Positions 60,001-64,000 of a DNA stretch of 64,000 bases are shown here, one piece after another. The stretch is from Candidatus Zhuqueibacterota bacterium (lineage in GTDB: Bacteria > Zhuqueibacterota > Zhuqueibacteria > Thermofontimicrobiales > Thermofontimicrobiaceae). A program made the position numbers. Every line of letters begins with the position of its first letter. Within the stretch, counting starts at the first letter, position 1. The stretch is taken from NCBI GenBank assembly GCA_049322915.1, contig JBMOPW010000012.1, forward strand, positions 65,888 to 129,887, read 5' to 3'.

Positions 60001-63000
60001 CCGCTTTGTCAGGAGGAATCGTGCCTTCCTCCAACCACTCAAGCGCTGCCGCCATGTCAATGTCTGGCATTCTGTACATGTCGAAAGCAGAGTGCGTGAT
60101 ACATGCGCTTCGCAAGTCATTGAGCAGCTTGCGGCATCCGGTGGAAGCGACGAGTTCAGCGAATTCCGAGGCCATAGCCTTCACCAGATCGGAGTCAATA
60201 TCTCATTCGACTCTTCCCACCCCGCGCGGGTTTAGCCCGGTCATCATTTCCAGTATTTGCTGATGAATTCCTGCACTTCCGGAATGCCGCCCTGGAAAAT
60301 CAAATAGCCGTTATGGGGCTCCCGCTCTGTAATTTCGCCGGCAATCGGGGTGAGCATGATATTCCGCACCTGGTCCGGATCCGAGGTTTGCCCCAATGCC
60401 CAGCCCAGTTTGACATATGCCACCTCCGGCAACATATTGGCCGCCGGAATAACGCCCAGTTCCATCATGTCGCGGCCGGTGTCGTAGACATACATCTGCA
60501 CATATCCCCACAACGTCTGCACGGTCATGTACATGGCAACGCCTTTATCGTGAGCGCGTTTCAGCGCCGGGTACAGCGGTTTGTTCACGTGTCCCAGTCC
60601 GGTGCCGGCAATGACAATGCCCTTGTATCCGTTATCAATCAGCGCATCGATGATATCCGGCTGCATGTTGGGATAATAATAAAGAATCGTCACCTTCTCT
60701 TCGAACGCGGTGTTGATGGTGACATTCCGGTCGCTGCGCCGATGTTTATAATCATCGCGCAGATGAACGAAACGGTCGCGGCTGACCATGGCCAGCGGAA
60801 TATCGCCGATGGTCCGAAAGGTCGACCGATAGCTGGAATGCATTTTGCGAACCCGCGTTCCCCGATGCAGCAAATCGTACTGGTCGCTGGTCGGGCCGAA
60901 CATGCAGACCATCACTTCAGCGATATCGCCCTCTGCCGCGCTTTTCGTCGCATTGATCAAATTCATGGCCGCATCCGAAGACGGCCGGTCGCTGGATCGC
61001 TGCGACCCGACCATCACAATCGGCACTGGCGAATTCTGCACCATGAACGACAGGATCGCCGACGTGTGGTGCATCGTGTCGGTCCCATGGCCGATCACAA
61101 TGCCGTCAACGCCCTTCTCGATTTCGCTGCCAATCGCCCGGGCCGTGCCAATCCACTGCTCCGGGCCCATGTTCTCGCTGAAAACGCCGTACAGCTTTTC
61201 GGTTTCCAGATTGCAGATATCCGCCAGCTCCGGGACCGAGCCGTACAGTTCCCCGGGCGAGAACGCCGGTATCACCGCGCCGGTGCGATAATCCAGCCGG
61301 CTGGCAATGGTGCCGCCGGTGCCAAACAGCTTGACGCGCGGCTTGTTCGGTTCGTACGGAAACGCCTTTTCCGGAATTTTGTAATGGGCCTTTTTATACC
61401 CCTTTTCCGTGATCTGCTCAATTGTCTCCACGGCAAGTCCCACATTGTACCCGTTGTGCAGTTTCAGCACGATGTGATGATCATCCGCGGTTTCGGATCT
61501 GGGGAGAATAATGCCGGAGAAGTCACCGCGCGTGGTATGCACTTCCACATCGCTCCACACCTGCACTGCGGCATTCTTCAATGCCGTGAGCGCCGGTCCC
61601 CGATAGCCTTTATATGTATCGTTGTCAGTCATGCATTGTCCTTTTTCTCTTTCATTCACTGAGCCGATTGGTCACCTGAACCAGCACATCCGCGCCGGCG
61701 ACCCGGCCGCGTATTTCTTCCATCACCAGTCCCATGACGAATCGCTTCCTTCGCTCGAAATCCGGAATTGCCACCACCCGCGCTTCGGCGAGCACTTCAT
61801 CGATTTTTTCTTCAACCTGCCGCGCGGTTAATTTTTGGTAGTCCGGCGCAATCTCGTTCACCGGCAGATCCTCCTCCAGAATATCCCGGACGATGAGCGG
61901 AATCGCCTCCCGAAGGATGGCTCGCTCTTTGTACAACTGAAAAATTGATTTGATCATGTCATCGGTCAATTTCGCCACCGGCAAATTTTTCCGCTTGAGA
62001 TATTTCAAAAACTGAACGAGGAACACGGCAGCGAGTTTCGGCTCCACATTCTGCGATTGAGTCAATGCATCGAACAGATCGGCGCGGCCATTGAGCAGCA
62101 GGCCATCGATGAGCGTTTCGTCGAGACCCAGGCTCGTGTACTTTTTCCGACGCGCCCACGGCAGGGGCGGCAGCGCAGCGCGGATGCGCTCGATTCGTTC
62201 CGATGTCAATGCAATGGGCGGCAAATCGGTGTCCGGGTACATCCGATCCGGGCCGGGCAGAATGCGCTCGAAACCGGTAGTGCCGTCCGGCAAATCCTGG
62301 CGCGTCTCGCTGGGGACGCCGATGATGGCCTCCCTGGCGCGGATGGCGGCTTCATTGAGAGCGGTATCCACATCGGCCGGCGCGCCCCAGACGACAACCA
62401 GCGCATCGACCGGCTCGAAGTTGCTGACCTTTTTTATCTTCTGCCAGAACGTGCTGCCAATGGTTTCATCCTCCGTGTCCGAGTGAATCATATTGGGGAT
62501 GTTATCGAGACAGGCAATCACCCGAATGCGGTCGGAAATTTCCTTGGCAAAATTCGTCCCCGGCTGAGTCGGGAATTTCAGTATATCGCGAAAGCGCGGC
62601 AATTTCACGCACTTGATTTTTGACTCGTGGGTGATGAGATTTTTGATGGGGAGATAGCTGGTATTGCGCAGAATGTCGGTCACATCGAAGAATTCCGGCT
62701 TGAAAGAATCCGGGCTCAGACCGCGTGATTTCAGTTTCTCGCGAATATCGAGCAATGCCTTTTGCCGGCCGGCTTCGTTGTGGACCAGCCGGGGAATGAG
62801 CGGAATTCGCGACACGCCTTTAATCTCCACGCGCGTCCCGCCGCGGATGCTCACGTTGACATCCTGCCTCGCAGCGCCGATGCCGCGGTTCACCTTGCCG
62901 GTCGTCCGGGTGAGCCGTCGGATGAGCTGCGCCACATCGGCCACCTCCTGGGGTGTGCGCATGTCCGGATAGGTCACCACTTCAATCAGCGGCATGCCCA

Positions 63001-64000
63001 GCCTGTCGGTGCGATACGTCCGCAGATGGCCAGTGTCGCTCACTTCGCGGCAGGCATCTTCTTCCAGCCCCAATTGAATGATCCCGATTTTCCGATTGCG
63101 GTAGGGAATCACGCCGTCGATGCCCAGAATGGTCGTGCGCTGAAATCCAGTGGGGATGCTGCCATCCAGATACTGCTTTCTGGCAATGTGCAATTCGCTC
63201 ACCACATTGCATTTGAGCAGCAGGGTAATTTCCAGCGCAATGTCCAGAGCCTGCTGGTTCAACTCGAACGGCGGCGCATCATCCATCTCGTAGGTGCACA
63301 CAGTCTCATTGTTGAGCTGGTACACGATTTCCTTTTTGGTTTTGAACTCCATCAGCGCCGTGCCATCGTACTCACCCAATTCGGACAGCGTGGGACGCAT
63401 GTGCCGTAAAATTTCAGCATCATAATTTTTATCGTAATGCCCGGCAGGACAACGGCAGAACAGCTTGCGCTGCGTGTGCAATTGCTGGTGGATTTCCAGC
63501 CCTGCCTTCAGCCCCAACTCGGCATATCCATCAGGACTCATCTCTTCGAAATTATTAATCATTGTGTCGGTGTGCTCCATGATTCTGTTTGATGCGAGAA
63601 TTGAACATTCAAAAATACAAAATTGGGCTGAGAATGTCAAGCCTTTAAATGAATAATAAAATATTGTTTCAAAGATTGCCCTAATTTTATTATGTGAATT
63701 TTTCGCGCGCCCTAATAAAAAAACCGACATGCAGATTGCCGGTTTTTAGAATCGATATTTAAAATACAAGTGACCCGTTGAAAGTATATGCAATATATTC
63801 GATACTTTTTTATATCTGTAATGGGCAGTCGCGAGCGTCCACTACGCGTATGTCCAATAACAATATAGGGTAGTTGATCACAGGGGATCAAAAGTTGTAT
63901 TTGTTTACTTTGGACAGGATAACAGGATGATAATGATTTACCGGATTATTCTCTATCCGGTAATATCCTCACCTTTCTTTTTAGTTCTACCTTATGTGGA

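Follow-up and report, generated by a model that had tools for sequence, protein, structure and literature searches.

The Glu-tRNA(Gln) amidotransferase GatDE is called an archaea-only enzyme in passages of reviews published up to 2022 (PMC2330236, PMC2811023, PMC8007984, PMC9499178), and arguments about the co-evolution of tRNA(Gln), archaea without GlnRS, and the content of the LUCA have been built on that restriction in the same reviews. The first-pass annotation of the locus described here, which treated GatDE as an archaeal signature, agrees with these passages. Among the archaeal enzymes, those of Methanothermobacter thermautotrophicus (2D6F) and Pyrococcus abyssi (1ZQ1) serve as our reference; a section of PMC2330236 gives the GatD nucleophile as a Thr, assigns catalytic roles to a Thr-Asp-Lys set, and names His15, Glu157, and Glu184 as the Mg2+ ligands of Methanothermobacter GatE. 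The identity element read by archaeal GatDE is the A1-U72 pair of tRNA(Gln), a property of archaeal substrates. Bacterial GatCAB follows the same three-step chemistry, its GatB subunit being a GatE paralog with a homologous catalytic and tail domain, and is described as reading the U1-A72 pair of tRNA(Gln) (PMC2811023). Whereas GatCAB relies on the amidase GatA together with GatC, the glutaminase of GatDE is the asparaginase-like GatD, and there is no GatC. Deinococcus, Thermus, and Bdellovibrio provide a precedent, reported in part of PMC4206432, for keeping GatCAB beside both GlnRS and AsnRS. In those bacteria GatCAB is linked with asparagine biosynthesis and with a second, non-discriminating AspRS; in the genome analyzed here, however, GatDE is the additional enzyme, and there are AsnB-type genes.

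We analyzed a window of 64,000 nucleotides (the whole stretch of DNA under study, numbered from its first letter) from a Candidatus Zhuqueibacterota bacterium whose genome is 96% complete. Our preferred reading, held with moderate confidence, is that the window carries a self-contained gatE-gatD operon from an old bacterial clade, encoding a working Glu-tRNA(Gln) amidotransferase that operates beside the direct route. The operon annotated in the first pass is where it was said to be: two minus-strand reading frames encode both subunits, each scoring far over the curated cut-offs. The features of the locus are as follows.

61652 to 63562, minus strand: gatE, 636 aa, from the ATG at 63562; alternative ATG at 63580
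61652 to 63730, minus strand: gatE reading frame, open to 63730, 692 aa
60244 to 61632, minus strand: gatD, 462 aa, likely start at the ATG at 61632
60244 to 61659, minus strand: gatD reading frame, 471 aa
61633 to 61651, minus strand: spacer of 19 nt separating the stop codon of gatE from the gatD ATG
63612 to 63640, minus strand: sigma-70-like promoter match (TTGACA, 17 nt, TATTTT) in the AT-rich leader upstream of gatE
59947 to 59965, minus strand: weak terminator-like hairpin inside the last part of a convergent ABC-2 permease gene, about 280 nt downstream of gatD

A GTG start for gatD at 61659, if used, would give an 8-nt overlap with gatE. The promoter match is the top site of a scan that returned 12 sites against 3.9 expected, and its 10 of 12 matching positions reflect consensus similarity alone. 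The hairpin carries little weight, because two such sites were seen against 4.1 expected by chance. The genes adjoining gatE-gatD are ordinary bacterial ones (a TPR protein and an ABC transporter), and contig C12 ends at position 64000, which places the start of the operon 438 bases from a contig end, as the annotation had cautioned.

Both subunits are full length, over their equivalog cut-offs, and intact in their catalytic residues, which bears out their initial assignment. GatD scores 523.3 bits against TIGR02153 (cut-off 324), covering model positions 2-403 of 405, and 518.2 bits against NF003217 (cut-off 310). GatE scores 583 bits against NF003107 (cut-off 456) and 492 bits against TIGR00134 (cut-off 319.55), whereas its best score against GatB models is 179 bits, under the cut-off of 338. 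The Pfam domains of GatD fall in the order GatD_N (PF18195), Asparaginase N (PF00710), and Asparaginase_C (PF17763), all over their gathering thresholds. In GatE, GatB_N spans residues 75-514 of the long open reading frame and is followed by GatB_Yqey at 551-683; a span of that size against a model of 277 positions implies a large insertion of about 160 extra residues. This layout matches the family, with a catalytic (cradle) domain bearing an AspRS-like insertion and then a helical and YqeY-like tail. The GAD Pfam model found no match in this GatE at E<=0.001 and did match the archaeal GatE of contig L092. The archaeal enzymes share the two subunits, their domain order, and their length, and align over the full length at 343-421 bits: 408 bits (1zq1_C) and 343 bits (2d6f_C) for GatE, 421 bits (2d6f_A) and 407 bits (1zq1_A) for GatD.

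Conservation at the active sites is equally close. His25, Glu167, and Glu194 of GatE align with Methanothermobacter His15, Glu157, and Glu184, and all three are among the 57 positions conserved at 95% or more across the bacterial and archaeal clades (49 bacterial-clade and 82 archaeal rows, 131 in total). The GatD motifs GTGGTIAS (Thr108), HGTDTM (Thr184, Asp185), and RVRKMH (Lys263) are identical to those of 2d6f_A and 1zq1_A, so that the Thr/Thr-Asp-Lys set of GatD and the His/Glu/Glu set of GatE are both kept. We also take Thr108, Thr184, Asp185, and Lys263 to have the roles generally ascribed to them in the asparaginase family.

The bacterial enzyme nonetheless differs from the crystallized archaeal ones. 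Its genes form a gatE-gatD operon, and the bacterial and archaeal clades can be told apart at 13 GatE positions, as in the loop DGS-IP-xGFQRT versus DGS-NT-xGFQRT. The GatD homologues that we found share their start position and range from 460 to 465 aa. GatD carries a C-terminal tail that runs about 21 aa past the end of both crystallized archaeal GatDs and is conserved in 65 bacterial rows. GatD is unusually conserved, with identity of 95% or more in 259 of 471 columns and a median identity between phyla of 80%. The GatDE proteins labelled Heimdallarchaeota (the P0156 cluster, which includes TET29438.1, and metagenome contigs L092 and L093) have some of these traits: their GatE shares 8 of the 13 "bacterial" states, and the GatD on L092 shares the C-terminal tail. 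The latter is 52% identical to the GatD described here; its gene, however, is transcribed divergently from gatE rather than in an operon, and the contig carries archaeal uS13-uS4-uS11 and HMG-CoA reductase.

All three of our trees recover a monophyletic bacterial GatE clade with a support of 100, and all three place the Heimdallarchaeota-labelled GatE as its sister with a support of 96-97 for the join, these supports being SH-aLRT or FastTree local values only. The bacterial label of the deep GatE branches P0128, P0149, P0159, P0166, and others is an assumption. In the GatB-rooted tree, a root on the bacterial stem is not rejected: with all archaeal rows held together, its log-likelihood is 0.87 lower (p-AU 0.48). 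Sheppard and Soll are said, in reviews that cite them, to have placed GatDE in the LUCA. We regard it as doubtful that the bacterial GatDE is as old as the archaeal lineage and pre-dates the domain split rather than being an import; if it does, GatDE would have survived in mostly FCB-type bacterial phyla, beside a later-acquired GlnRS.

Divergence and composition indicate that the operon is old and has long resided in its lineage. Against L001, dN and dS are 0.038 and 1.39 for gatD and 0.133 and 1.42 for gatE, and the resulting dN/dS of about 0.03-0.09 marks strong purifying selection on the operon. Compared with a Melioribacteraceae chromosome, GatE is 52% identical, GatB 49%, and GatD 78%; GatE has thus diverged between phyla about as far as GatB. 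The GC content of gatD and gatE is 0.56, alongside 0.561 for gatA, 0.565 for glnS, and a genome mean of 0.488.

GatDE is not exceptional to this bacterium: of the GatD loci in species-representative genomes, the best 80 all belong to bacterial metagenome-assembled genomes (MAGs), and GatD passes its cut-off in 51 of 167 genomes of the phylum. Within a very large bacterial GatDE clade, the enzyme described here is an ordinary member. Its retention through the lineage, as claimed initially, stands, given that 13 of the order's 21 genomes are over the GatD cut-off (11 of 14 in the host's family, 1 of 2 and 1 of 5 in two others). The patchy distribution across the phylum implies that the function is dispensable in many relatives. 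The gene order is stable: in 71 of the 80 bacterial loci gatE precedes gatD on the same strand, and 8 of the other 9 are truncated within 540 nt upstream of gatD. Clustering of the open reading frames of 81 loci yielded no conserved neighbor beyond gatE and gatD, the commonest family occurring in 10 of 81. The eleven neighbor families that were annotated are unrelated to one another; they include a hibernation factor, PhoH, H+-pyrophosphatase, an outer-membrane barrel, an ABC ATPase, acyl-CoA dehydrogenase, E1 dehydrogenase, and a peptidase. No tRNA-Gln was linked to the operon in the 50 of 80 loci that were scanned; tRNAs lay near it in only two of them (Leu-tag and Glu-ttc).

GlnRS accompanies GatD in 49 of the 51 positive genomes of the phylum, and in 39 of 44 and 3 of 5 further GatDE-positive genomes, so GatDE is formally redundant almost everywhere. 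The exceptions include G027 (90% complete) and G169, two GatDE-positive genomes in which GlnRS and GatB are both absent at lenient thresholds too, and in which GatDE would therefore be the sole known route to Gln-tRNA(Gln). In two single-chromosome genomes, a single contig carries GatDE, GatB, and GlnRS. Of the genomes that are at least 90% complete, 7 of 37 GatD-positive and 4 of 76 GatD-negative ones lack GatB (E<=1e-90), a count of 7 that drops to 6 after a GatB fragment was found in one genome; this excess of GatB loss is weak, as it amounts to about three families versus two among incomplete MAGs. We read G027 and G169, the GatB counts, and the tRNA(Gln) D-loop size given below as signs of a canonical role. 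AsnRS is present in all five GatB-lacking carriers tested. A proposed pairing of GatDE with one GluRS paralog is not borne out by co-occurrence, and on that basis we reject it: the 51 GatD-positive genomes of the phylum comprise 29 with two GluRS copies, 21 with one, and 1 with none, families without GatD mostly have two GluRS as well (14 of 19 genomes in one such family), and GatD presence does not track GluRS duplication across the phylum.

The other routes to amide aminoacyl-tRNAs that had been listed for this genome are all present by profile score or tRNA gene. GatCAB is encoded on two other contigs, C44 and C34 (GatB 529 bits, GatA 601 bits, GatC 94.6 bits), and is joined by AsnRS (492 bits), two bacterial-type GluRS (547 and 543 bits), and four AsnB-type asparagine synthetase genes; for the second GluRS, Thermus GluRS ranks 13th-14th among the PDB matches. 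The two GluRS genes lie at C7:227462-228904 and C32:58682-60115. An archaeal signature would entail an archaeal host without GlnRS, but the host here is a bacterium with a GlnRS of 753 bits. With GatCAB, AsnRS, and AsnB-type genes also at hand, GatDE is on paper unneeded for either amide aminoacyl-tRNA. The two tRNA-Gln genes (CTG and TTG) both have U1-A72 with G73, unlike the substrates of archaeal GatDE; the archaeal-type A1-U72 pair is absent from both, and the tRNA(Asn) of the genome is likewise U1-A72. It follows that the bacterial GatDE would have to accept U1-A72 or ignore the first pair. The tRNA(Gln) D-loop, at 7 nt, is the smallest among the Gln, Glu, Asn, and Asp tRNAs of the genome; D-loop size is given in a passage of PMC2330236 as the feature by which amidotransferases reject tRNA(Glu).

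For the substrate, amide donor, partner GluRS, and physiological role of the bacterial GatDE, we infer the following by analogy with the archaeal enzyme. A GatD dimer would carry two GatE subunits. GatE would bind Glu-tRNA(Gln) and phosphorylate its gamma-carboxyl with ATP and Mg2+ at His25, Glu167, and Glu194, while GatD would hydrolyze glutamine or asparagine through its predicted nucleophile Thr108 with Thr184, Asp185, and Lys263; the ammonia would then pass through an internal tunnel and yield Gln-tRNA(Gln). The Glu-tRNA(Gln) may be supplied by a GluRS whose rejection of tRNA(Gln) is incomplete, with GatDE working beside GlnRS. GatCAB would perhaps do the same job or serve mainly Asp-tRNA(Asn). 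The first-pass annotation's claim that GatDE must do something that GatCAB and GlnRS do not goes too far; it may do so.

In a possible, though not the favored, account, GatDE is a condition-specific or back-up enzyme, called on for Gln-tRNA(Gln) synthesis whenever free glutamine or GlnRS activity runs short, and an accessory that many relatives can lose. Its patchy yet strongly conserved distribution (51/167 in the phylum, 13/21 in the order) and the coexistence of GlnRS in almost all carriers are consistent with such a role. The asparaginase-type subunit could, for example, take asparagine as the amide donor, and Methanothermobacter GatDE is described as using Asn about as well as Gln (PMC2330236, in part). 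No regulatory element or nitrogen-related neighbor is conserved in 80 loci, however, and the annotated families are unrelated housekeeping genes. A search for sequencing runs yielded four of DNA type and none of RNA. We see this account more as a refinement of the main explanation, a working amidotransferase beside the direct route, than as a true alternative. A larger departure, and an improbable one in our judgment, is a new function, either with a different aminoacyl-tRNA as substrate (Asp-tRNA(Asn), for instance) or in tRNA-dependent amidation outside translation. Redundancy with GlnRS and GatCAB in this genome, the shared U1-A72 of tRNA(Gln) and tRNA(Asn) with no A1-U72 in the former, the 13 clade-separating GatE positions, and the unusual conservation of GatD (the 80% median noted above) would all fit it. 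Yet the residues conserved family-wide are all kept, both proteins score as equivalogs, and 8 of the 13 "bacterial" GatE states are common to the Heimdallarchaeota-labelled GatE, whose host must need it for Gln-tRNA(Gln). A new function is further opposed by the presence of AsnRS both here and in the five GatB-lacking carriers, by AsnB here, and by the large insertion that GatE retains in its catalytic domain, which in archaeal GatE has been modelled to exclude AspRS (PMC2330236, in the section on that domain); no biosynthetic-cluster neighbors were seen among the 81 clustered loci and eleven annotated families.

An artefactual or recently imported operon, from a mis-binned archaeal contig or a freshly transferred island, is in our view highly implausible. 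Its nearness to the contig end and a GC content above the genome mean might suggest as much, but that GC content matches gatA and glnS of the same genome, the flanking genes are ordinary bacterial ones, and no mobile-element genes occur among the conserved neighbors. Of the family's 14 genomes, 11 have the same operon, as do two complete bacterial chromosomes, GatE divergence equals that of GatB, and the nearest archaeal GatD is only 52% identical.

NCBI and JGI already label proteins of the bacterial clade as GatD or GatE, and we found no report of a bacterial GatDE in open-access papers, subscription journals and supplements lying outside the search; the group is labelled in databases and undiscussed in the open-access papers searched. 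For this locus alone the result is modest, one more ordinary member of its clade. A bacterial clade that is large, old, and strongly conserved, and linked to a Heimdallarchaeota-type relative, nevertheless changes the archaea-only picture. GatDE would not be tied to archaeal tRNA identity, since it lives with GlnRS, often with GatCAB, and would have to handle a U1-A72 tRNA(Gln). Its carriers are natural test cases for why direct and indirect routes to Gln-tRNA(Gln) are kept together.

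Two long minus-strand open reading frames in the window, 61652-63730 (692 aa) and 60244-61659 (471 aa), encode the two subunits of the Glu-tRNA(Gln) amidotransferase GatDE. Matches to the family profiles start at residues 69 and 33, respectively, and homologues of the second frame are 460 to 465 aa long, their starts corresponding to its ATG at 61632. We set the gene bounds from these model-match and homologue starts, and they bear out the gatD and gatE coordinates of the first-pass annotation.

Features of the gatE-gatD operon
61652-63562 (alternative start 63580), minus strand: gatE, start from the profile match
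60244-61632, minus strand: gatD, start from the profile match and from homologue lengths and starts
19 nt between gatE and gatD, minus strand: spacer, from the ORF coordinates
30-50 nt upstream of the gatE start, minus strand: promoter-like site TTGACA-17-TATTTT, a consensus match only

Against TIGR02153 (cut-off, 324), GatD reaches 523 bits, and GatE reaches 583 bits against NF003107 (cut-off, 456); on GatE, the GatB models all score below their own cut-offs. The Pfam domain architecture of both proteins is that expected for the family, and alignments with the solved archaeal enzymes 2D6F (Methanothermobacter) and 1ZQ1 (Pyrococcus) span their full length. GatD keeps the asparaginase-type residues Thr108, Thr184, Asp185, and Lys263, and His25, Glu167, and Glu194 of GatE align with the three Mg2+ ligands of the Methanothermobacter enzyme, which loses its activity when they are mutated, according to passages of PMC2330236. 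The convergent genes 3' of the operon, encoding a TPR protein and an ABC transporter ATPase and permease, are unrelated.

Passages in papers published from 2008 to 2022 (PMC2330236, PMC2811023, PMC8007984, PMC9499178) state that GatDE is found only in archaea, in keeping with the first-pass remark that reviews treat it as an archaeal signature, and we found no paper in the open-access literature reporting GatDE in bacteria. Databases already name thousands of bacterial copies, and the window operon is another member of this group. A GatD search of species-representative genomes gave at least 589 confirmed stretches, the best 80 of which we used for locus analyses. All of these 80 loci, at 75 to 94% identity, lie in bacterial metagenome-assembled genomes (MAGs); NCBI ranks 71 as Bacteria, 9 as unresolved, and none as Archaea. 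The labels most often given are Ignavibacteriota (22), Bacteroidota (12), and Calditrichota (4), followed by Krumholzibacteriota, Latescibacterota, Aminicenantes, Zixibacteria, Fermentibacteria, and others. Some of these labels cannot be trusted: by identical match coordinates, L001 ("Cytophagia") and L035 ("Caldithrix") correspond to genomes of the window's own phylum, and the NCBI labels of several loci from "binchicken" MAGs (Cytophagia, Caldithrix, Hyphomicrobiales, Eubacteriales, and Planctomycetaceae) are at odds with their placement. A search of protein collections with GatD returned at least 8000 clusters at E<=1e-40; the top 120 among the matches listed are 83 to 100% identical, and several, from candidate division KSB1, Calditrichaeota, and Aminicenantes MAGs, already bear the name "Glu-tRNA(Gln) amidotransferase subunit GatD," which makes the host probably a KSB1-type organism. 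Within the window's phylum, GatD exceeds its cut-off in 51 of 167 genomes, including 13 of the 21 of the order; the earlier claim that GatDE is kept in the lineage holds. The phylum tallies include two unpublished genomes (G158 and G162), both GatD negative, on which no conclusion rests.

In 71 of the 80 bacterial loci gatD is preceded by gatE on the same strand, and the gatE match ends <600 nt before gatD in 68 of these 71. The gap is 1.0 to 1.9 kb in L011, L015, and L037, where an extra gene may have been inserted. Of the nine loci that lack gatE, eight break off within 540 nt upstream of gatD; the ninth, L022, extends 2.9 kb there but still shows no gatE. No other gene family is common to more than 10 of 81 loci, and in the 50 of the 80 that were scanned, no tRNA gene is linked to the operon. 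One Aminicenantes MAG carries a 910-aa frame (L051:4657-7389) that joins a truncated gatE (query residues 190-554) in frame to a complete gatD, for which fusion, frameshifting, or a mixture of strains could account; in its second gatD locus (L040), the preceding gatE is cut by the contig end. Two long GatE cluster representatives, P0161 (943 aa; match confined to residues 11-471) and P0197 (781 aa; match beginning at residue 171), may be fusions or miscalled genes.

A GatE search with one representative per 50%-identity cluster yielded 689 proteins at E<=1e-30. We built three trees: FastTree with 132 rows, IQ-TREE (quick) with 67 rows rooted on four bacterial GatB proteins, and IQ-TREE (quick) with 45 rows, including one additional archaeal relative. 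All three unite every named bacterial GatE in one monophyletic clade (SH-aLRT or FastTree local support, 100) and place P0156 as its sister (support, 96 to 97); some of the other rows carry names from Thermoprotei, Thorarchaeota, Parvarchaeota, and Methanofastidiosum. A protein named from a Heimdallarchaeota MAG belongs to the 90% cluster of P0156, and metagenome contigs L092 and L093 encode GatE 70% identical to P0156. L092 also encodes HMG-CoA reductase as well as uS13-uS4-uS11, these last over archaeal equivalog cut-offs and in the archaeal gene order, and for this reason P0156-type GatE is truly archaeal. The L092 GatD is 52% identical to the window GatD and shares with bacterial GatDs a C-terminal tail (...E.E...GYLI.Q.GI...), whereas both crystallized archaeal GatDs end before it. 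On L092 (8436-11935), gatD and gatE diverge from a 170-nt spacer rather than forming a gatE-gatD operon as in bacteria. Thirteen GatE positions separate bacterial from archaeal rows, and at 8 of them P0156 agrees with the bacterial rows. These sequences are most simply read as a single old transfer between a Heimdallarchaeota-like archaeon and bacteria, after which the genes persisted for a long time and were lost many times. Transfer into bacteria is the most likely direction but is not proven. When all archaeal rows are forced together, so that the root falls on the bacterial stem, the log-likelihood drops by just 0.87 units (p-AU 0.48).

The operon is a constrained resident rather than a recently acquired island. 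In a comparison of the window genome with a Melioribacteraceae chromosome, identity is 52% for GatE, 49% for GatB, and 78% for GatD, and median identity over 60 random pairs from 53 bacterial loci is 80% for GatD and 61% for GatE. In an alignment of 65 bacterial GatDs, 259 of 471 columns are >=95% identical. Relative to the closest relative, L001, dN is 0.038 for gatD and 0.133 for gatE, with dS near saturation (1.39 and 1.42). At 0.56, the GC of the operon is the same as for gatA and glnS of this genome. A binning artefact is excluded, since GatDE, GatB, and GlnRS occur together in two single-chromosome genomes of other lineages (G167 and G170).

The host genome (6.25 Mb, 45 contigs, 96.3% complete, 2.5% contaminated) has the full first-pass inventory of GatCAB, GlnRS, AsnRS, two GluRS, and tRNA-Gln CUG/UUG. 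GatB (529 bits) and GatA (601 bits) adjoin on contig C44, with GatC on C34; GlnRS scores 753, AsnRS 492, and the two bacterial-type GluRS 547 and 543 bits. Four AsnB-type asparagine synthetases exceed the cut-off, and no AsnA was found in this genome. A separate type I asparaginase-like paralog (C4:1206-2177, minus strand; about 350 aa; 184 bits on the GatD model) has no GatD N-terminal domain; it is present in most of the host's family, with an in-frame stop in several relatives. The second GluRS gene (C32:58682-60115; GC 0.444) lies outside the window within a tRNA cluster (C32:58452-61398; Ser, Ser, gltX, Gln, Arg, Glu, Arg, Ser, Ser, Ala), its stop codon 5 nt before tRNA-Gln(CTG) at 60120; cotranscription of the two would fit a tRNA(Gln)-charging GluRS. 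ARAGORN gives both tRNA-Glu genes (C2:46189-46263 and C32:60369-60442) a G1-U72 wobble as first acceptor pair, not G1-C72.

Across the phylum, 146 of 167 genomes have GlnRS, among them 49 of the 51 carriers of GatD, and so do 39 of 44 and 3 of 5 additional GatDE-positive genomes (a few of the 44 overlap the phylum set; the five lacking GlnRS are MAGs of 1.5 to 2.2 Mb). GlnRS frames are mostly about 570 to 600 aa, and those of 695 to 717 aa in ten genomes (G016, G019, G020, G023, G025, and G038-G042) suggest an added domain, which may resemble the YqeY-type extension of Deinococcus GlnRS. Among genomes >=90% complete, 102 of 113 have GatB at E<=1e-90, and it is missing from 7 of 37 carriers versus 4 of 76 noncarriers. 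In one of these seven carriers (G063), a lenient search recovered a partial GatB at the edge of a contig, and it recovered none in G024 (99% complete) or G027; the excess loss in carriers is suggestive only, as few independent lineages are involved. AsnRS is present in all five GatB-lacking carriers tested. This co-occurrence argues against the simplest replacement stories for GatDE. The proposed pairing of GatDE with one GluRS paralog finds no support in co-occurrence, for GluRS copy number does not track GatD: the 51 carriers have two copies (29), one (21), or none (1), carriers of family f12 have one each, and 14 of 19 genomes of the GatD-free family f15 have two (12 of 17 without unpublished genomes).

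Archaeal GatDE recognizes the A1-U72 pair and the D-loop of tRNA(Gln), according to passages of PMC2330236 and PMC9499178. Both host tRNA(Gln) genes (CTG and TTG) instead have U1-A72 with G73, the bacterial pattern, so the archaeal first-pair rule is unusable for bacterial GatDE; their D-loop, at 7 nt, is shorter than in host tRNA(Glu), tRNA(Asn), and tRNA(Asp). We think it probable that bacterial GatDE still serves as a Glu-tRNA(Gln) amidotransferase that has adapted to bacterial tRNA(Gln) and acts beside GlnRS: a GluRS that does not fully discriminate would produce Glu-tRNA(Gln), which GatDE would amidate. Co-occurrence, the intact catalytic machinery, strong purifying selection, and kinship to an archaeal enzyme obliged to make Gln-tRNA(Gln) all point to this amidotransferase reading. 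A condition-specific or Asn-donor role, which would refine rather than displace it, seems doubtful, and a changed substrate is less likely still.

New here are the Heimdallarchaeota-type sister with its common GatD tail, the finding that GatE and GatB have diverged equally, the presence of GlnRS beside GatDE in nearly all carriers, and the want of any tie of GatDE to GluRS duplication, a tRNA gene, or a conserved neighbor. Neither GlnRS nor GatB was found in two carriers, G027 (90% complete) and the MAG G169; if these absences are real, GatDE would be their sole route to Gln-tRNA(Gln).
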